Below the pieces are notes generated by a model. That model saw only the letters and a program-made list of their open reading frames with translations. It ran no database searches and was not told where the DNA came from. Positions 901 to 10,887 of a stretch of 64,000 nt of DNA are shown in pieces (positions within the stretch are counted from its first letter, which is position 1; each line of letters opens with the position of its first letter). The stretch spans positions 1 to 64,000 of the forward strand of contig CAVZYA010000002.1 of the NCBI GenBank assembly GCA_963779415.1, written 5' to 3'. This stretch comes from an uncultured Acidobacteriota bacterium (GTDB lineage: Bacteria > Acidobacteriota > Thermoanaerobaculia > UBA5066). The translations under genes were made by a program, and so were the position numbers.

Positions 901-1153
901 GGAGGGCCTCCTGCAGGATCGTTCGGTCCAGCGTCAGGTCCGCCACGATCCCCTTCAGCTTCCGATTCTCCTCTCGAACCTGCCGCAGCTCCCGCAGCTC
1001 CGTCACCCCAAGCCCCGCGTACTTCTTCTTCCACCGGAAGTACGTCGCCTCGGCCACGCCCATCTTCCGGCAGATCTCCTCCACCGGCGTCCCGGCCTCC
1101 CCCTGCCGCAGGGCCACCGCGATCTGCTCCTCCGTGTACCGGCTCTTCCTCAT
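887..1153 (-). CDS. IS3-family transposase OrfA (HTH)
   Basis: MRKSRYTEEQI...EICRKMGVAEATYFRWKKKYAG...LTLDRTILQEALRKKW; GGAGG RBS upstream. Confidence 0.93.
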   Translation of the reverse strand: MRKSRYTEEQIAVALRQGEAGTPVEEICRKMGVAEATYFRWKKKYAGLGVTELRELRQVREENRKLKGIVADLTLDRTILQEALRKKW

Positions 1154-1258
1154 CGATCCGTCCTCCAGGCTCCTCCCAGAGCCTCAGAACGAACCGAAAT
1201 CTACGCCCCTTTACGAGAGTCGCCCTGGACTAAGAAACGGGGAGAAGACCCATCTGTT

Positions 1259-1374
1259 GTGGCAGTTTCACGCAGGCTCAGAGCATCTGGGGTCAACCCA
1301 TTCCAAGTAAGCAACCGCCATTGAATGAATCGGTTAGCTCGGGGCTCAGGTCACGCGCCTGAAACTGCCACCCC
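1259..1374. repeat. Two head-to-head copies of the distal half of the att-arm repeat
   Basis: GTGGCAGTTTCA (1259-1270) is the exact reverse complement of TGAAACTGCCAC (1360-1371); each half resembles the arm at 3250-3302 or 23265-23324. Confidence 0.7.
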
Positions 1375-1583
1375 ACTCCCCCACCTCCCATTTCGTATCG
1401 ACTATCTCGGGGCCGATCCTTCAGGTCCTGGTTCGAAGAGCGGCCTGACGGACCGTTACGACACTCGGAGAGCGGGGCCGGCGTCTGTCGACCTGTGCCC
1501 GCCAACCTATAAGGCGAGCTCGAACCGCCAGCCCGAGCGCGCCATGGAGTCGGGCGATTCCCGGCGCAGCCCCACACGATTTC

Positions 1584-1630
1584 TTGACACCTCTCGCCCG
1601 TTGTCATATATTGAGAATTAATCTCAGTAT
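1584..1630 (+). promoter_or_regulatory. sigma70-type promoter with adjacent Fur-box-like operator
   Basis: TTGACA (1584-1589)-N17-TATATT (1607-1612), then TGAGAAT-T-AATCTCA (1612-1626), a 7-1-7 inverted repeat resembling the Fur consensus TGATAATnATTATCA; AT-rich patch in GC-rich DNA. Confidence 0.72.
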
Positions 1631-1714
1631 TATGAGGACCAGCCTTCACATTCGATTCCGGACTCGACTCTGTAGCCCGGCGAAAGTCAACCCGCAACCG
1701 AGAAAGGAGACACC

Positions 1715-2017
1715 ATGGCAGGAAGAGGAGCCGCAGCGGCTTTACGTGGGATTCCGAGCGACGTGAAGGCTGCCATCGCGAAGCAGCTCATAGGCACCAG
1801 CCTCGAGAAACTCGGAAGAGTGCGTGTGTTTCCCAAGGGAATACCGTTTCCGGATGAGTGGTCGGTCAGCATCCTCCCGAGTTCGCCCGCAAACGCGAAG
1901 CGAATCATCGACGCCTTGACGGCGCGGCCCGGGCTCGGGCACTTCGAAGTCTTCCCGTACGGCATCGTCAATCCCGAGATCGGGCGCATCGAGATAGGCA
2001 TCGGCTCGAGAGGGTGA
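1715..2017 (+). CDS. 100-aa hypothetical protein with duplicated VFPxGIxxP(D/E) motif; candidate radical SAM substrate or partner
   Basis: AAAGGAG RBS; repeats VRVFPKGIPFPD and FEVFPYGIVNPE; stop overlaps next start (TGATG). Confidence 0.82.
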   Translation: MAGRGAAAALRGIPSDVKAAIAKQLIGTSLEKLGRVRVFPKGIPFPDEWSVSILPSSPANAKRIIDALTARPGLGHFEVFPYGIVNPEIGRIEIGIGSRG

Positions 2018-3096
2018 TGGTGGAAGGCGCGCACGCCGGGCAAGAGTGCGGCGGAATTCTGCAGGTACATCCGACGCGGCTCTGCAACCTGGCGTGCGCG
2101 CACTGCTACTCTTCGTCGTCCCCCGGAGCCCGCACAATGCTCCGGCCCGACCAGATCACCGGGGCGATCCAGGATGCCGCCGCGTTAGGGTTCAACGTCG
2201 TGTCCTTGTCGGGTGGCGAACCTCTGGTCTACGACGGCCTCGAAGAGGTAATCGACGCGGCGCACCAGGTGGGAAGCCGGGTCAATCTCGTCAGCAACGG
2301 AATCCTCATCCGCTCGCGCCGCTACGAGCGGCTTGCGGGCCGGTTCCGCATCGTGGCTCTCAGCCTCGACGGGTTACCCGAACGTCACAACGCCATTCGC
2401 GGCTCGGAGAAGTCGTTCGAAAGCGTCCGCGCGGCCGCCGAGGAACTCCGGCGTTCCGGTCAGCCCTTCGGGATCATTCACACCCTGTGCTCCGAGTCGA
2501 TGGGTGAGATCGAGGATCTGGCCGGAATCGTTTCGGACTGGGGAGCATCCCTCCTGCAGTTGCACCCCTTCGAGCCGGCCGGCCGCGGCACCTCTGCGGC
2601 CGGCATGACCGAGCTCTGCGACGACGAACGGCTGGACGCGCTGCTCATGGCAGCCGTCCTTCAGGAGGACTTCCCGAAACTCCGCGTCCAGCTCGACCTC
2701 GTTCACCGCGAGGTCGCGCGTCGAATCCCGGCCGCGATATACGGCGCTTCGCTGAAGGAGCCGATGGAACCACGTGAACTCGTGCTGCAGGACGATGGCC
2801 GGATCCTGCCGCTCACCTACGGGATGGACGGTGCGTGGACGGTCGCGGACCTGTCGAAAGAGCGGCTCTCCGCAGGCTGGACGGAGTTCATGGAGAACCG
2901 ATGGCTTGACCTGCGACGGTGCCTTCGAAGGGCGTGCGTCGCGGCCGCGCGCGGGCGCCACGGCGAAGTCGTCGCCTGGCATGCACTCATACGTCGCTAC
3001 GCTGAGTCGGGAGCCGCCCACACGGAACGCGCCTCGCGCTGGCCTGCCCAGACTCGTTCGAGCTCCTGTTCTTCGGCTGTGTCGCGACAGATGTAG
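2017..3096 (+). CDS. Radical SAM enzyme (PqqE/AlbA-like core, no SPASM cysteines)
   Basis: CNLACAHC (CxxxCxxC), SGGEP, SNG, SLDG, HNAIRG; start at 2017 inferred from the TGATG overlap. Confidence 0.9.
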   Translation: MVEGAHAGQECGGILQVHPTRLCNLACAHCYSSSSPGARTMLRPDQITGAIQDAAALGFNVVSLSGGEPLVYDGLEEVIDAAHQVGSRVNLVSNGILIRSRRYERLAGRFRIVALSLDGLPERHNAIRGSEKSFESVRAAAEELRRSGQPFGIIHTLCSESMGEIEDLAGIVSDWGASLLQLHPFEPAGRGTSAAGMTELCDDERLDALLMAAVLQEDFPKLRVQLDLVHREVARRIPAAIYGASLKEPMEPRELVLQDDGRILPLTYGMDGAWTVADLSKERLSAGWTEFMENRWLDLRRCLRRACVAAARGRHGEVVAWHALIRRYAESGAAHTERASRWPAQTRSSSCSSAVSRQM

Positions 3097-3345
3097 GGGC
3101 GCCACGGGACTTCTGAGGTCCCGTGGCGCGAAGAGACCAGCGTCACGCCTCGCGTAGGCGCTTGTTCGACCGGGTACGGTCCGCTACGCGAACCACGTTC
3201 TCGGGCCGAACAGAGAGCGGTCAACCCGTTCTCAGCCCCGAACCGCCTCCGAGTGAATGAGTTGACCTGCGGTGCGCCGAGCCGACGTGAAACTGCCACC
3301 CCACCCTTATTCGACGCGGGACCCTATGTCCATTGCACCGTTACA
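3092..3345. mobile_element. Non-autonomous TGT...ACA element enclosing one att-arm copy
   Basis: TGTAGGGGCGCCACGGGA at 3092 and TCCATTGCACCGTTACA ending 3345; arm repeat at 3178-3302 inside. Confidence 0.6.
3178..3302. repeat. att-arm repeat without tRNA core
   Basis: GGTCCGCTACGCGAAC...GTTCTCGGGCCGA...TCAACCCGTTCTCAGCC...TGAAACTGCCACCCC, collinear with 12784-12909. Confidence 0.8.
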
Positions 3346-3374
3346 GCAGCCATGAAACGCCGCCGCTGGTGCGC

Positions 3375-5219
3375 CTACAGAGACGGCTTCGAAGGGGCCT
3401 CGGACGCCTTCGGCGCATTCGACGCCCAAGCCACCTTGCCCGCGATGGCGAGCCAGTCGGCGCCGCTGTCGACCGATTCGATCGTGAAGGGAAGGTTCTC
3501 GGGCATCTGGAAGAGCGTGACGTCCGTGTACGTCTTCGTCAGGAGAGGGCCGATGACGTTCACGAACCAGCCGGCGACACCCTTGCAGCGCGGCTCGATA
3601 CGCACGTTGCGGAGGACGAAGCGGCGTTTCGGCGCATCGACGACGAGGTCCGCCTTTCCTTCCGTGTCGCAGATCTGCCGGAAGAGACGGCCTTTGGCCT
3701 CCTTCTTCTCCACCGTTACGCCCAGATCGACCACGAAGCAGGTTCCGCCGCAGGGGCTGAAGTGCCGCGGCTCGATCACGAAGTCGACCTTGCGCATGAG
3801 AGCCGAAATGTCCTGGCTCCACTTGGCCCGCAGAACCTCGAAGGCCGCCCGCTCGATGGGAGGCCACGGCACTTTGAACTGATACTCCCCTCGGACGACG
3901 CCCTCGTCGCCGCTGCCTGCGTCCTTCAGGTGGAGCGTCGCCGTGAACGGTCCGTGAAAGACGAGCGGGACGCGCCGCTCGCCGACCTCGGCGACCGGAT
4001 AGTTCACGACGAGCAGATAGTCGATGCGATAGTCGAACCCGAGCTCCACGTCGCCGGTCGCCCGGCCGTCGACGACCGTCGCCCCGTGCGTGCGCACCTT
4101 GAAGTTGCTCGCCGAGACAAGGGTTCCGCCCCGATCGAGGACGCCCGTTTTCCCGAACAGCTCCGCGTCGACGATCCCGGAGTAACGTCCGTCCGGCCGG
4201 ACGTGCAGATCGCGGACCGTGAAGTGCGAGGGCGTCTCGACGCCGATCTTCGGACCCCCGGGCAAGCGGAACTCTCCCGACGTCAGGTCGAGATCGAAGG
4301 CGCCGGCGGAGATCTCCGTCTGGAACTTCCCGTCGTCTCCGGATCGGACCTGGAACGCACTGTCCTTCAATTCGCCGTGCGAAAACGTACTGCGGCCCCC
4401 GACAAAGGCGACGGACCCGTTCTCGACCTCTCCGTCGAGCCAGCCGGAGACCGTGAGCTGTGCCCGCTGGTCGCTCCGAGCCGGCCGGTAAACGCCCTCG
4501 TCTACCGCGACACGCGGGGGCCTGCCCGTCCTGGGCTGTACGGCGGTCTTGAACTCGACCATCTCGCCGAACTCCAGCGGGCGCCAGCCAAAGGCCGCGA
4601 ACTCCGAGTCGTGGATGCGGACCTCCCGGACGAGGTCGAGGAAGGTCGCTCCGGACGTATCCACGGTCTTCGACTCCAGGACCTCGCCGCGCACGACGGA
4701 GGGAACGTCTGTGTGAAGGTGGAGGTTCTGGAGCGCCGACATCGCGAGACCGTGAAAGATTCCGAGGATCGGCCTCCAGATCCCGCGGCCGCGGAAACGG
4801 GCCTCCGTGATTCCCTTCCCCTCCTCGAAATGGATGCTCTCGATGAAGACACGGGGGCGCAACCCTTTACCGCGCAGGAGGAGCTGGCCCTCGGTGACCG
4901 CGAAGTCGAGGCGCCGGACCCGTCCCTCGGCCGCATCGACAACGAGCGTCGCCTTTGGCGCTCCGATGGCTTCCACCGTCCATCCGGGAGCCGCCGGGGT
5001 ACGGCCCGCCGCGAGGTCGATCTCGAGATTCAGCTTGCCGCTGTCCACGCACGCGGCGATCTGATCGAGCAGGATCCGCGGGTCCGGCGCGGCGGAAGTT
5101 CCCGACGAGCGGACCGCGGGCGCTGCGGGAGCGGGCGGAGGCCCCGGCGCCTGCGCGAAAGCAGGCGCAGCGACGAGAACCAGGACGAGCGGGGTCCCCT
5201 TACCGCGACGCGTCGACAT
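3375..5219 (-). CDS. Large exported hypothetical protein, beta-rich
   Basis: 614-aa ORF from ATG 5219; signal peptide ending AFA-Q, then Pro/Ala linker; protein-like composition. Confidence 0.75.
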   Translation of the reverse strand: MSTRRGKGTPLVLVLVAAPAFAQAPGPPPAPAAPAVRSSGTSAAPDPRILLDQIAACVDSGKLNLEIDLAAGRTPAAPGWTVEAIGAPKATLVVDAAEGRVRRLDFAVTEGQLLLRGKGLRPRVFIESIHFEEGKGITEARFRGRGIWRPILGIFHGLAMSALQNLHLHTDVPSVVRGEVLESKTVDTSGATFLDLVREVRIHDSEFAAFGWRPLEFGEMVEFKTAVQPRTGRPPRVAVDEGVYRPARSDQRAQLTVSGWLDGEVENGSVAFVGGRSTFSHGELKDSAFQVRSGDDGKFQTEISAGAFDLDLTSGEFRLPGGPKIGVETPSHFTVRDLHVRPDGRYSGIVDAELFGKTGVLDRGGTLVSASNFKVRTHGATVVDGRATGDVELGFDYRIDYLLVVNYPVAEVGERRVPLVFHGPFTATLHLKDAGSGDEGVVRGEYQFKVPWPPIERAAFEVLRAKWSQDISALMRKVDFVIEPRHFSPCGGTCFVVDLGVTVEKKEAKGRLFRQICDTEGKADLVVDAPKRRFVLRNVRIEPRCKGVAGWFVNVIGPLLTKTYTDVTLFQMPENLPFTIESVDSGADWLAIAGKVAWASNAPKASEAPSKPSL

Positions 5220-5327
5220 AGGCGGATGTCCTGGAACACCAGAAGCGCACGACCACAACGGGACACTCGTCTTTCATTCATGAGGATATCAAGTGAAATG
5301 AGGCGTCGCCCGCGACGGCGATTGATC

Positions 5328-7474: not shown

Positions 7475-9728
7475 GTGGCCCGACCCGACGCCCCCCCGCG
7501 GCTCCTCCCGGCACTCGCCGCCGCCGGCTTCGCGGCGACCGCCGCCCAGGTCCTCCTCCTGCGCGAGCTTCTCGTCTCGGCCGCGGGGGACGAGGCGGCG
7601 ATCGGCACCGGCCTCGCCGCCTGGCTTCTCGGCATTGCCGTCGGCGCGCTCGCCGCGCGGCGCTCCTCGCCGGAACGTCTTCCGCGCCTCGGCGCGCCGC
7701 TCCTCTCCCTCCTCGCGCTCGCGGGGGCGGCCGGCATCGTCGCGCTCCGCCTCCTTTCGCTCGCCGCCGCGCCGCCACCCGGCGAGCTGCCCGGCCTCGG
7801 GACCGTCCTCGTACTCGCCGCTGCGACACTCCTCCCCGCCGGGGCGCTCGTCGGCGCCTCGTTCGCGGCGCTCGCCGCCGCCGCCGCCCGGCAGCTGCCG
7901 CCAGGCGCGGCGCTCGCCCGCCTCTACGTCGCCGAGTCGGTCGGCTCCCTCGTCGCCGGGTGCGCCGCGAGCCTCCTCGTCGGGACGCTCCTCCGGCCGC
8001 TCCCCGCGGCCCTCCTCGCGGGGCTCGCCGCCGCGGCGCTCGTCGCCGCGTCGGGGCTTGGCGCGCGGCGCGCCCCTCTCGCCGCGCTCGCCCTCCTCGC
8101 CGCGGCGCTCGCCGCCGCCCGCCCCCTCGACGACGCGACGGAGAGAATCCGCTTCCGCGCCCTCGCTCCCGAGACTCCCCTTCGCGCCATCCGCGACACG
8201 CCGTACGCGCACCTCGCGCTCGGCGGCGACGGCCCGCTCGTCCTCTTCTCGAGCGGCGCCTACGCCGCGACCTTCCCCGATCCCTACACGAGCGAGGGGT
8301 TCGCCCACCTCGCCGGCTCCCTCGCCCCGTCGCCGCGGCGGATCCTCGCGACCTCGGACCTGGCCCTCGGGGCGCTCAGGTTCCTCCTCCTCCACGGTCC
8401 CGAACGGGTCGACCTCGTCGAGCCCGACCCTCGCGCCCTCGCCTTCGTCCGCGAGCGGCTTGGCGAAGCCGACCGTCGGGCCCTCCTCGACCCGCGTGTC
8501 CGCGTCGTCGAGGATGACCCACGCCGCTTCCTCGCACGCTCCGCGGACGCGTGGGACCTCGTCCTCCTCCTCGGCCCCGACCCGGTCACGCTCTCCCGCG
8601 CCCGCCTCCTGACCGAGGAGACGTTCCGCGCCGCCGCCGCGCGCCTCGCGCCGCGCGGCGTCCTCGTCGTCTCCCTCCGGACCTCCGCGGCCGCGCTCGC
8701 CGGCCCGACCGCGGCGCTCGGCGGCTCGGTCTGGGGGGCGCTCCGCTCCGTCTTCCCCGTCGTCCACGCGACGCCCGGCCCCGAGAGTCTCCTCGTCGCG
8801 GGCTTCGACCCGTCGGCCGTCACGCTCGACCCGGGCATCGTCGCCGGCCGCTTCCACGCACGGCGGATCGCCGCCGGGGCCTTCACCCCCGAGCTCTTCC
8901 CGCTCCTCCTCGAGCCGGGGAACGTCGCGCGCCTCGAGGCCGCGCTCGACGAGGCCGCGCGGCGCGTCCCGCCGAGCCGCGACGACCGCCCCGTCTCGCT
9001 CCTCTTCGCCCTCGCCCGCCGCGAGCTCGAGACGGCCAGCCCCGCCGCGCGCGCGTTCGGAGCCCTCGCGCGGCTGCCGGCGCCGCTCCTCGTCCTCCTC
9101 GTCCTTCTCCCGCCCGCCGCCGTCGCGCTCCGGGGCTTCGTCTCCCCCGCCTCCTGCGACCCGCGCGGCCGCAAGCGGCGTCGCCGCCACGGGCGCCGCC
9201 GGCATGGCCCTCTCCTTCCTCCTCCTCCTCTCCTTCCAGACGCGCGAAGGGAGGCTCTACGGCGCGCTCGGCGCGCTGACCGCGGCCTTCATGCTCGGCC
9301 TCGCCCTCGGGGCGGCCTGCGCGCGCCGGCTCGTCGCTACGCGCTCCGCGCCGCCGCGCCGCGGCCTCTTCGTCCCCCTCCTGGCAGTCGCCGGAGCTTT
9401 CGCCGCCGTCGCCCTCGCCCTCCCCGCCCTCGCGCGTCTCTCCTCCGCGCCGCCGGCGGCCGCCTTCGGCGCGCACGCCCTCCTCCTACTCGCTTCCGGC
9501 ATGGCCACGGGGTCGCTCTTCCCCTTCGCGACGGCCGTCCTCCTCGGGGAGGGACAGGGCGCGGGCGCTTCTGCCGCGGCCTTCGAGGCGGCCGACCACT
9601 TCGGGGCGGCCGCCGCGGCCCTCCTCGCGGGCGTCGCGCTTGTCCCCGCGCTCGGGATGACGGCCACCGGCCTCCTCGCCGCCGCGGTCGTCCTCCTCGC
9701 GGCCCTCGGCGCGGCGCGCCCCCGCTGA
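7475..9728 (+). CDS. Fused membrane/spermidine-synthase-like (SAM-fold) protein, with a +1 frameshift near 9135
   Basis: N-terminal TM region (AQVLLLRELL, LYVAESVGSLVAG); central VDLVEPDP, DPRVRVVEDDPRRFL, WDLVL; C-terminal TM region in next frame (GMALSFLLLLSFQ...AFMLGLALG). Confidence 0.8.
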
Positions 9729-9731
9729 CCT

Positions 9732-10887
9732 TCAGCTCCAGACGCCCGGGATCGCGCGGCCGCAGTCGGGGCAGGCCCCCTTCTTGAGCCGGTTCTCGAC
9801 CATCGCCATCCCGACGCGGTGGATGAGCCGCGCCTTGCAGCCGGGACAGTACGTCGACTCCCCCGGGTGCCCGGGGACGTTCCCGACGTAGGCGAACGGG
9901 AGCCCCTCGGCGAGCGCGATCTCCCGCGCCTTCTCGAGCGTCGCGACGGGCGTCGGCGGGAGGTTCGTCAGCCGGTAGATCGGCTGGAAGCGCGTGAAGT
10001 GGAGGGGCGTCTCGCGCCCCACCTCGTCCCTCACGAAGCGCGCGACGGAGCGGATCTCGGCGTCGGAGTCGTTGATCGTCGGGATGACGAGCGTGACGAC
10101 CTCGGTCCAGAGCTTCGCCTTCGCGAGCCTCCGGAGCGTGTCGAGGACCGCGCTTCAGCTCGCCGCTGCACATCTCGCGGTAGGTCTTCTCCGACCAGGC
10201 CTTCAGGTCGACCTTGTAGGCGGCGAGGACCGGGCAGAGTTCGCGGAGCGGCTCCTCGCGGATCGAGCCGTTCGAGACGACGACCGTCTTCAGCCCCGCC
10301 TTCCGCGCCGCGACGGCGAGGTCGAGGACGTACTCGGCGAAGACCGTCGGCTCCGAGTAGGTGCAGGCGACGAGGGGAGCCCCCCTCTTCAGGGCGAGCG
10401 CGGCGATCTCCTCGGGCGTCCGCGTCGGTACGGGGATCTCCTCCGGGCGCGACTGCGAGATCTCCCAGTTCTGGCACCAGCGGCAGTGGAAGTTGCAGCC
10501 GGCGGTCCCGAGCGAGAGCGCCGGGGTCCCGGGGAGGACGTGGAAGAACGGCTTCTTCTCGATCGGGTCGAGATTGAGCGCGACGGGGCGGGAGTGGACG
10601 AGCGTCATCAGCCGGCCGCCCCGGTTCTCGCGGACGCCGCACTCGCCGCGCTCCCCTTCCGGGATCTCGCAGCCGCGGAAGCAGAGGCCGCAGGCGACCG
10701 CCCGGCCGGGAAGCGGCGACCACCAGCGGGCCGGCTGCGCGGCGAGGCCGGGAGAGGGTGCCGCCGGTGTCCGCAGCGCCGGTGCGCGGTCCTCGTTCTG
10801 GAGGCACCAGGCGCACGCGAGCCGTTCCGTCGCCGCCGCTCCGGCCGCGGCGAGTGCCGAGACGAGGAGCTCGCGGCGCGTCTTCAT
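9732..10887 (-). CDS. amrS: AmmeMemoRadiSam system radical SAM enzyme, single-base frameshift near 10152
   Basis: CGLCFRGC...GECGVREN, DPIEKKPFFH, GCNFHCRWCQNWEISQ, TYSEP; continues in shifted frame VLDTLRRL...LHFTRFQP...YVGNVPG...TYCPGC...CPDCG; N-terminal TRRELL. Confidence 0.88.

Follow-up and report, generated by a model that had tools for sequence, protein, structure and literature searches.

A duplicated small protein and a radical SAM enzyme without auxiliary-cluster cysteines: a candidate protein-modification pair from an uncultured acidobacterium

Among the main sources of new post-translational chemistry are the radical S-adenosylmethionine (SAM) enzymes whose substrates are ribosomal peptides and proteins. 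To our knowledge, almost all of the characterised radical SAM maturases use the auxiliary clusters of a SPASM or twitch domain, and they also use a recognition element (RRE) of the kind known from peptides that the ribosome makes and that are modified after translation (RiPPs). In SkfB, for example, an N-terminal domain of the RRE type is accompanied by a twitch domain that holds an auxiliary cluster. BlsE, DesII and viperin are single-cluster enzymes without auxiliary clusters; we know of none of the three with an obligate small-protein partner, and the substrates known to us are nucleotides or sugar nucleotides. The system discussed here comes from an uncultured Acidobacteriota bacterium whose genome (assembly GCA_963779415.1) comprises 4.36 Mb in three contigs. 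The stretch that was analysed, called the window below, is the first 64 kb (64,000 nucleotides) of contig 2. Near its start lies a cassette of two genes, one for a 100-residue, internally duplicated protein (P0001) and one for a radical SAM enzyme (P0002). The family of this enzyme has neither auxiliary clusters nor an RRE, yet it is strictly tied to one conserved duplicated 100-residue partner.

The reading that we favour, with modest confidence, is that the pair is a stand-alone mobile protein-modification cassette in which the radical SAM enzyme modifies the small protein encoded next to it. It is favoured because the coupled gene lies upstream, a sister clade has the same layout, the enzyme appears to have maturase ancestry, the predicted docking is leader-like, the motif is duplicated, and conservation is confined to non-catalytic loop residues. 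The general kind, a radical SAM enzyme with an adjacent ribosomal partner, is known. The duplicated FPxGI partner and the cluster-less, RRE-less architecture belong to no curated family, and no description of the motif or of the pair was found in the literature covered, which stops short of the supplements of genome-mining studies. A preliminary description of this DNA, made from its letters alone, had matched the pair to no characterised RiPP class; neither protein is claimed by a curated family. The pair probably represents a protein-modification system not described before. Should the partner be the substrate, it would show what a cluster-less enzyme of maturase lineage does to a protein and how a protein is recognised without an RRE. 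Otherwise, the pair would amount to a two-component radical SAM enzyme of a new type. With only two genes, the system is easily tested.

The duplicated small protein and its pairing with the enzyme gene

The small-protein gene occupies positions 1715..2017 of the forward strand and the enzyme gene positions 2017..3096 of the same strand, and all other features of the cassette given below are on this strand as well. P0001 is a helix-hairpin protein with two copies of a motif, VRVFPKGIPFPD at residues 36-47 (1820..1855) and FEVFPYGIVNPE at residues 77-88 (1943..1978). The offset between them is 41 residues, which bears out the preliminary report of two copies about 40 residues apart in a 100-residue protein. 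When the profile of residues 12-56 was aligned to the profile of residues 57-100, hhalign gave a probability of 97.3% (E 2.3e-11). The two halves are homologous, and the small protein is therefore a tandem duplication of one unit, an amphipathic helix plus a hairpin. The AF2 model, of moderate quality and built from 34 sequences, has a predicted local distance difference test score (pLDDT) of 67 and the order alpha-beta-beta-alpha-beta-beta (H15-25, E34-39, E48-55, H58-70, E76-80 and E91-97). Each motif is modelled as the end of a strand plus a hairpin loop, and the loop of each half reads (V/I)FPxGI(P)xP(D/E).

Strict FPxGI motifs were counted in 91 non-identical relatives. Two copies are present in 75, one in 13 and none in 3, with a spacing of 39-41 residues; the count leans towards the motif because the metagenome part of the set was fetched with a DNA pattern that requires both motifs. 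The variability at the x position is unaffected by this way of fetching. Loop 1 of the 91 sequences has K, L, I, R, Y, F or N there, and loop 2 has Y, K, L, R, F or W, which makes the K/Y position the least conserved residue of the motif. Across a superfamily alignment of 47 sequences the residues that are invariant besides the start Met are G42, F80, P81, G83 and I84, and F39, P40, I43, P44, Y82 and P87 are at least 90% conserved. The closer set, made up of the relatives from a word-indexed search, has invariant E78, F80, P81, Y82, G83, I84, P87-I92, W49, S52, L54 and P55; Y82 varies across the superfamily. The most divergent partners (loci L140, L141, L142, L145 and L146) have INRGTP, CAYGIC, CIYGIC or CPYGQP as loop 1 and keep the Gly, which is the most conserved residue in both hairpin loops. 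P0001 has no Cys, and the invariant loop residues, Gly, Phe, Pro and Ile, are neither catalytic nor metal-binding.

The preliminary description had spoken of FP(K/Y)G turns; across the relatives Gly, Phe, Pro and Ile are conserved and the K/Y residue is variable. An XYG chemistry like that of the spliceases, directed at Tyr, is therefore unlikely to be the reaction that the family has in common. Radical SAM spliceases have a SPASM domain, and their substrates have a conserved Tyr-Gly. A splicease of the PlpX type (XYG) was considered and rejected: loop 2 can have K, L, R, F or W in place of the Tyr, loop 1 seldom has a Tyr, and the enzyme has no SPASM cysteines.

The word-indexed search returned 34 relatives of the small protein at E<=0.01 among 52 candidates, with 59-82% identity in the main alignments and nearly all with lengths of 97-103 residues. 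Searched with a profile, 1.84 billion representatives gave 24 proteins at E<=1e-3; those that are remote relatives are again about 100 residues long and keep (R/K)(V/I)FPKGIPxPD and (V/I)FPYGI. No fused or longer form was found at E<=0.001 among 1582 candidates, a result of little weight. P0168, a 1267-residue repeat protein with a weak profile match, is by sequence an unrelated repeat protein and was dropped. The small protein has no family match in Pfam, NCBIfam, PHROG or PADLOC. Foldseek found nothing for its model in the PDB at E<=0.001, its profile found nothing below E 0.07 among PDB sequences, and the ESM Atlas gave no usable match. The best VIA match was to the domain II fold of ribosome recycling factor (Z 7.0, root-mean-square deviation (rmsd) 2.8, 67 aligned), which is at the level of a common arrangement, and PulL, PilO and phage neck proteins came next; no fold was assigned.

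The two genes are found together. At the genome loci that were found via the small gene, the radical SAM gene lies directly downstream on the same strand in 9/9 cases. These nine loci lie in species-representative genomes and come from Betaproteobacteria, Burkholderiaceae, Gammaproteobacteria, Planctomycetota and one unclassified bacterium. For metagenomes, a degenerate DNA pattern for both motifs gave 119 stretches, 34 of which have a match to the hidden Markov model (HMM) of the small protein, 31 of them at E<1e-8. All 27 of these 31 loci with at least 150 nt of downstream DNA have a same-strand radical SAM gene; 26 were counted by script, and L055, which has overlapping open frames, was added by eye. 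The remaining four end within 145 nt of the small gene, too early to judge. From the stop of the small gene to a possible start of the enzyme gene the distance is -4 to +43 nt in 34/36 loci, a figure that is biased towards short gaps because the nearest start codon was chosen. No third gene recurs across the loci, apart from near-identical betaproteobacterial synteny. The self-contained two-gene module proposed in the preliminary description is supported by this strict co-occurrence.

Loci were also collected with a profile of the enzyme. In the window's own phylum, 6/401 genomes match at E<=1e-40. Besides the window's own match, the partner lies upstream in four of the five (HMM E 1e-31, 2e-10, 3e-6 and 2e-6). 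The fifth and most distant, L143, has a different upstream open reading frame (ORF) of about 105 residues, together with a C-terminal Cys triad, HPCxxxVCNGxxCH. The 401 genomes of the phylum of the Planctomycetota locus gave ten radical SAM matches, five of them full-length. L144 is itself the search centre; the HMM detects the partner at L145, the partner at L146 is degenerate and was recognised by eye, and the Cys-triad outgroup takes in L147 and L148. The other five (L149-L153) were set aside as presumed other radical SAM families, as four stop near profile position 207 and one near 297. The HMM partner is therefore upstream in five of the nine full-length matches beyond the search centres (L139, L140, L141, L142 and L145). 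The other four are L146, with its degenerate partner, and the outgroup L143, L147 and L148, with the different ORF of about 105 residues; a small upstream ORF is present at all nine. It had been considered that homologues of the enzyme might usually lack the small gene, and family-level homologues were found to carry it.

The outgroup forms a sister clade of radical SAM enzymes (L143:1007-2493, L147:973-2571 and L148:1423-3041) in which the Cys triad, HPC(A/S)A(F/Y)VCNGxxCH, lies just before the C-terminal hairpin. The upstream ORF of about 105 residues reads, for example, ...TLKI(D/N)xxxLRKIAxSGRLE... and ...DDE(F/Y)GTGPRPPHW.... Sister-clade proteins compared with NCBIfam (L143, L146 and L147) match no curated family; for L146, NrdG2 scores 56.6 against a cut-off of 131. 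From its sequences the sister clade looks like another undescribed small-protein/radical SAM pair. For L145 (G537:C51, from a Planctomycetota-phylum genome) the genome search reported two in-frame TGA codons within the radical SAM match; the six-frame segment is nevertheless open over model positions 7-336. No consistent pattern was seen between the cysteine-bearing variant loops of L141, L142 and L145 and extra cysteines in the radical SAM enzymes.

The radical SAM enzyme and its predicted contact with the partner

P0002 has 359 residues, and PF04055 is the only Pfam domain in it (4.6e-23, 82.6 bits against a cut-off of 29.5). The CX3CX2C motif for the radical SAM 4Fe-4S cluster, CNLACAHC, is located at residues 23-30 (2083..2106). 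The other motifs are GGEP (66-69), SLDG (116-119) and DDGRILPLTYG (259-269), and all four are in the enzyme where the preliminary description had placed them. In 63 aligned family members C23, C27, C30 and G66-P69 are invariant, which is the mark of the radical SAM superfamily, and the three cysteines are the only invariant ones. No Cys outside the CX3CX2C motif is conserved in 26 close or the 63 wider sequences, and there is no match to PF13186 (SPASM). The earlier view that this is a radical SAM enzyme without auxiliary-cluster cysteines is thus upheld in both sets. Y31 and Y72 of the enzyme are also invariant in the 63 sequences. An RRE was not found: only 22 residues precede the CX3CX2C motif, and neither protein has a PqqD-type match in Pfam or NCBIfam.

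In a homology search with the enzyme, 652 of the 8000 candidates that were scored came in at E<=1e-3. Some 60 of these have 50% identity or more; behind them stretches a long tail with 32-41% identity and about 340 residues, and named members of the tail come from Lysobacter, Sphingosinicellaceae, Lewinella aquimaris and Granulosicoccus. Landmarks common to the tail are HCYSSSSP, GGEP, SLDG...HN..R, HP(L/F)E.AGR, QLDLV and an LV.E.DG.VVP..YGF hairpin. As a signature for annotation, the pair can be described as two FPxGI hairpins 39-41 residues apart, followed by a radical SAM protein of about 340 residues with HCYSSSSP, HP(F/L)ExxGR and an LVLQxDGxxxPLxYG hairpin.

The best NCBIfam matches to the enzyme cover only core residues ~20-195 and are all far under the cut-offs. 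The scores in bits against the cut-offs are 93/515 for NirJ, 91/525 for a pseudo-SAM/SPASM model, 75.6/500 for AhbD, 68.3/650 for AhbC and 63.6/180 for viperin (viperin_w_prok). Among models of peptide maturases they are 74.3/625 for StsB, 70.7/265 for mycofactocin, 61.2/300 for SkfB, 53.6/381 for PqqE and 52.3/850 for AlbA. It had been considered that the enzyme might fall among heme or cofactor enzymes, and it does not by any curated cut-off (NirJ, 93 versus 515 bits); its neighbours are unrelated to heme synthesis. The heme d1 and alternative heme enzymes NirJ, AhbC and AhbD were accordingly rejected as identities, given the missed cut-offs, the core-only matches and the lack of a heme-pathway context. 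Viperin and pVip were rejected as well, as the full-length cut-off is missed (63.6 versus 180) and the PADLOC match to pVip covers residues 16-135 only, against a 257-position profile.

The AF2 model of the enzyme has a pLDDT of 93.3. Its C-terminal domain (about residues 250-341, 2764..3039) starts with a beta-hairpin (ELVLQDDGRILPLTYG; strands E254-257 and E262-265), followed by helices at 284-341, and stands in a twitch/SPASM-like position without Cys ligands. The nearest solved fold is SkfB (Z 26.2, rmsd 6.0, 291 aligned, model residues 6-345), followed by SuiB (24.5), BlsE (23.8), anSME (21.7) and PqqE (21.7). Further matches are viperin (Z 21.3), CteB (21.1), DesII (20.5), EpeE (20.1) and, for the core, PFL-AE, the activating enzyme of pyruvate formate-lyase (17.1). 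By sequence the best PDB profile matches are again SkfB (2.8e-21) and then YydG/EpeE (1.9e-12). The structural alignments to SkfB, SuiB, anSME and PqqE reach model residues 331-345 and so span the C-terminal hairpin-and-helix domain. As the fold superposes with this domain included and the cysteines are lost, the model places the enzyme in the twitch/SPASM structural lineage as a member shorn of its auxiliary-cluster ligands. Judged by the modelled fold, RiPP and protein maturases are its structurally nearest group.

A co-fold of the small protein and the enzyme, built on the alignments of both and with a 4Fe-4S cluster and SAM included, scored 0.64 (runs 0.61, 0.64 and 0.72), and the best of three co-fold controls scored 0.03. 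The mark for co-folds is reached by 58/80 solved complexes and by 2/110 mismatched pairs, in a calibration made without custom alignments or riding ligands. The runs share at least 27% of contacts, and the pLDDT of the partner is at least 42. All of the small-protein contacts with an expected error below 8 Å fall in residues 5-33 (1727..1813). This N-terminal helix region, which includes the AF2 helix 15-25, is predicted to be a leader-like docking element. On the enzyme side the predicted interface comprises residues 162-166, 203-214, 230-237 and 317-318. The co-fold supports direct binding of the small protein to the enzyme. The predicted docking of the N-terminal helix resembles leader-peptide docking and gives no placement for the hairpin loops. 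The preliminary description had the enzyme act on the FP(K/Y)G turns, and this is not supported by the confident contacts, which are made by residues 5-33 and not by the loops.

Signals, neighbours and distribution of the locus

A sigma-70-like promoter, TTGACA-17-TATATT, is found at 1584..1612; it is a consensus match only, at 11/12 positions. The promoter search found this one site against a mean of 0.2 in 50 shuffles, and the site is not kept upstream of other loci. The Shine-Dalgarno sequence AAGGAG (1704..1709) lies 5 nt ahead of the ATG at 1715, and a GGAG-type site just before the ATG is the sole common feature of the upstream regions of 25 aligned loci. The stop codon of the small gene (TGA, 2015-2017) overlaps the ATG of the enzyme gene at 2017 (TGATG). 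Of the operon signals listed in the preliminary description, the promoter-like site, AAGGAG and the TGATG overlap are thus all present. The claimed operator amounts to a 5+5 palindrome, TGAGA-N5-TCTCA, at 1612-1626, which is below the size reported by the repeat finder and is not kept upstream in other loci. The only report of the repeat finder upstream is an overlapping palindrome, 75% complementary, at 1639-1680. Rfam gave no near-threshold match to an RNA element across 1100-3500, and the 5' untranslated region (1619-1720) folds no better than shuffles (z +1.02).

The proteobacterial copies L010-L014, L016 and L018 have a common block, GTCTACGTGAATA...GCGCTTGCG...CAAAGAATTGCGxCGCCGCC, about 60-130 nt 5' of the small gene. 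The GTCTACGTGAATA...GCGCTTGCG block is not present at the window's copy. From its sequence it may be lineage-specific regulation, and L010 has a gene for a cNMP-binding (Crp/Fnr-type) protein just downstream.

On its 5' side the cassette is next to mobile DNA, a transposase pair of the IS3 type on the reverse strand (18-1153; orfA, HTH_Tnp_1, 887-1153; orfB, rve/rve_3, 18-1034; with a frameshift-type overlap). Base 1 of the window is base 1 of the contig, so the sequence context 5' of the IS3 element is out of view, and the element is the probable cause of the assembly break. Immediately downstream of the cassette, in convergent orientation, is an ORF of 627 residues (3375-5258, reverse strand) with high GC3 and no Pfam match, which is not kept beside the cassette in other loci. 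Beyond it are DUF5670, BON-domain and spermidine-synthase-like genes. It had been stated earlier that no RRE, protease or exporter adjoins the pair, and the neighbours, from the transposase pair to the spermidine-synthase-like gene, agree with this. A 770-residue ORF with a spermidine-synthase domain (7475-9787) lies within a stretch of 77-81% GC, compared with a window mean of 67.6%, and many long overlapping ORFs on both strands around it are composition artefacts. Elsewhere the flanking genes are heterogeneous, with Pfam matches that include malic enzyme, periplasmic binding protein, PLD-like, glycosyltransferase, histidine kinase and Kelch.

Sixty relatives of the window's genome were searched for the small gene without a match. 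Among 400 scored genomes of the class of genome G455, only the search centre matched at E<=1e-60. Together with the counts for the two phyla given above, the sequences describe a cassette that is rare, patchy across phyla and horizontally mobile. An argument for horizontal transfer from composition was not relied on: the GC content of the first 7.2 kb is 0.641 against 0.680 for the rest of the window, a small gap, and the first 12 kb contain no tRNA.

Contigs that are 88-99% alike are present in wetland and soil metagenomes. One DNA contig of 1475 nt covers 1648-3076; it has 67 differences there and departs from the window upstream of 1648. Contigs about 95-96% alike also occur in two metatranscriptome libraries made from soil, each by a different study: X16 with 1677-1950 and 2343-2556 and X20 with 1725-2040 and 2228-2429. 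These are no more than a hint of transcription, as RNA libraries can contain DNA. In the sequencing runs with similar contigs, of which four were compared, including the two RNA libraries, the shares are all <=0.23. The two RNA libraries leave parts of the stretch uncovered, gaps to which no meaning is attached. Within 1715-2014, 10/13 listed differences in near-identical environmental contigs are at third codon positions, a bias that is as expected under purifying selection.

Substrate or partner, and comparison with known systems

If the small protein is the substrate, the C-terminal face of the enzyme would dock its N-terminal helix in the manner of a leader, with no separate RRE domain. 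The motifs indicate that SAM would be cleaved to a 5'-deoxyadenosyl radical, which would then take an H atom from an invariant loop residue of one or both hairpins. The K/Y residue can be ruled out as the common target; likelier candidates are the hairpin-tip Gly, the sole residue kept when loops degenerate, and the Ile or Pro beside it. The likely outcomes would be epimerisation, a persistent backbone radical or a redox-neutral rearrangement or crosslink, rather than a classical SPASM oxidative crosslink. These outcomes are favoured because there is no auxiliary cluster to take up the second electron. With no auxiliary cluster and no conserved Cys available, oxidative crosslinks of the sactionine or SPASM type are less plausible, and so is epimerisation of the YydG type with Cys as the H donor. 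Epimerisation with another donor (the invariant Y31 and Y72 may be considered), a persistent glycyl-type radical and a redox-neutral rearrangement would be the options left. Since no protease or exporter travels with the pair, the product would be an intracellular modified small protein.

A more specific proposal can be made. In a folded protein with two-fold symmetry, the enzyme could abstract H from the hairpin-tip Gly (G42 and/or G83) or from the Ile or Pro next to it. This would leave a persistent backbone radical or an unprecedented modification of backbone or side chain, and the modified protein itself would be the functional end product. The cassette would then be a pair of "activase plus target", unrelated to the known glycyl-radical enzymes or RiPP classes. 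In this detailed form the proposal is doubtful.

Several points weigh against the small protein as a substrate at all. With 100 residues and a predicted alpha/beta fold, it does not resemble a typical RiPP precursor. Its pLDDT of 42 in the co-fold leaves its own structure there uncertain, and no result puts either FPxGI loop in the active site, as the co-fold contacts involve the N-terminal helix only. At the loci examined the pair is unaccompanied by a protease, an exporter or an RRE. Nearly all of the characterised radical SAM peptide crosslinkers known to us carry auxiliary clusters, and the cysteines for such clusters are absent from the window's radical SAM family. The solved cluster-less relatives BlsE, DesII and viperin act on small molecules. 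There is also no conserved Cys to serve as the H donor in a YydG-type epimerisation.

Is the small protein then a partner rather than a substrate? It may be an obligate non-substrate partner with a specificity, scaffolding or regulatory role, while the enzyme targets a small molecule (a nucleotide or sugar nucleotide, for instance) or a macromolecule encoded elsewhere, and the pair could in that case be an anti-phage or conflict system. We consider this possible, though not probable. The predicted binding of the N-terminal helix fits a partner as well as a substrate, and the structure predicted for the small protein is that of a folded alpha/beta domain. A C-terminal domain without an auxiliary cluster also gives the enzyme a likeness to BlsE, viperin and DesII, with the Z scores of 23.8, 21.3 and 20.5 noted above. 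However, what is invariant in the small protein are hydrophobic residues, Gly and Pro in the loops, which form no obvious ligand-binding or catalytic set, and the sister clade also has a small ORF 5' of the radical SAM gene, which is the usual layout of a precursor and its maturase. A conflict system would be consistent with the resemblance of the radical SAM core to the pVip models (PADLOC 1.3e-19, residues 16-135), with the adjoining IS3 element and with the rare and patchy distribution of the cassette (6/401 genomes of its own phylum, five full-length matches in 401 of the Planctomycetota phylum, 1/400 in the class of G455 and 0/60 close relatives). However, the small protein has no PADLOC match, the pVip matches involve the generic radical SAM core only, the viperin model stays at 63.6 bits with its cut-off at 180, and no recognisable defence genes flank the other loci.

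The small protein might also be a sacrificial scaffold for the biogenesis of a cofactor, as in the pyrroloquinoline quinone (PQQ) and mycofactocin systems, with its loops crosslinked by the enzyme and a diffusible product released by housekeeping proteases. The precursor gene would lie directly 5' of the radical SAM gene, PqqE is among the nearest folds (Z 21.7), and the mycofactocin and PqqE maturases appear in the NCBIfam match list. In the close family motif 2 is E-V-F-P-Y, i.e. Glu-X3-Tyr, and the Glu and Tyr that are crosslinked in PqqA are spaced in the same way. These two residues, however, vary in the superfamily (R, V, S, H or K are seen at 78 and K, L, R, F or W at 82). The enzyme has no SPASM cysteines, the PqqE and mycofactocin models score 53.6 and 70.7 bits where 381 and 265 are required, and there is no RRE of the PqqD or MftB type, no peptidase and no tailoring gene at the loci examined. 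We regard this origin as very unlikely. That the cassette is nothing functional, a chance ORF before an orphan or decaying radical SAM gene brought by an insertion element, is hardly credible despite its place at the contig start beside IS3 and the lower GC content of the first 7.2 kb (0.641 vs 0.680), as it is already contradicted by the conservation data: both frames are intact, 34 relatives with 59-82% identity and invariant motifs occur in several phyla, the two genes are always together, the differences in environmental copies fall mostly at third codon positions, and the model of the enzyme has a pLDDT of 93.3.

The favoured reading, in which the enzyme modifies its neighbour, can be set beside the systems that are closest to it. 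SkfB, the maturase of the sporulation killing factor of Bacillus subtilis (PDB 6efn), is the best solved relative of the enzyme both by sequence and by fold, and it too is a radical SAM enzyme that modifies a ribosomal peptide encoded next to it. Unlike SkfB, the window's enzyme has only 22 residues before its CX3CX2C motif and no conserved extra Cys, and its partner is a 100-residue, Cys-less repeat protein. The folds of SuiB (with SuiA, for streptide), CteB (SCIFF) and anSME superpose on the enzyme through the C-terminal domain. The predicted docking through the helical N-terminal segment of the small protein is similar to leader recognition, and the solved SuiB-SuiA complex (5v1t) is in the fold match list. 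Unlike SuiB, CteB and anSME, the window's enzyme has no SPASM cysteines and no RRE domain and is under all curated cut-offs. The PqqE/PqqA/PqqD and MftC/MftA/MftB systems share with the cassette a radical SAM enzyme that acts on the product of an adjacent gene. They differ in that the cassette has no chaperone gene of the PqqD or MftB type and no SPASM cysteines, and in that its partner is duplicated and about 100 residues long.

The single-cluster enzymes resemble P0002 in other ways. BlsE, DesII and viperin have the same single-cluster architecture with a C-terminal extension; in contrast to them, the window's enzyme is always accompanied by the small protein. The activating enzyme of pyruvate formate-lyase is a single-cluster radical SAM enzyme that abstracts H from the hairpin-tip Gly of a protein, and its targets include the small GrcA/YfiD. 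The small protein has an invariant Gly at the predicted tip of its hairpins. Glycyl-radical proteins have the fingerprint RVxG(F/W/Y) and an activase of the PflA or NrdG type. Unlike the glycyl-radical domains, the small protein has no Pfam or NCBIfam match, its loop is FPxGI and it has no Cys to receive the radical; unlike PFL-AE, the window's enzyme has an extra C-terminal domain, and the activase models are under their cut-offs. Compared with the SPASM/twitch maturases as a class, the auxiliary-cluster cysteines, scores above the curated cut-offs and the RRE are missing, and the overall fold is shared. The adjacency of the two genes and the predicted leader-like docking are consistent with the layout of RiPP systems, in which the precursor is found beside its modifying enzyme.

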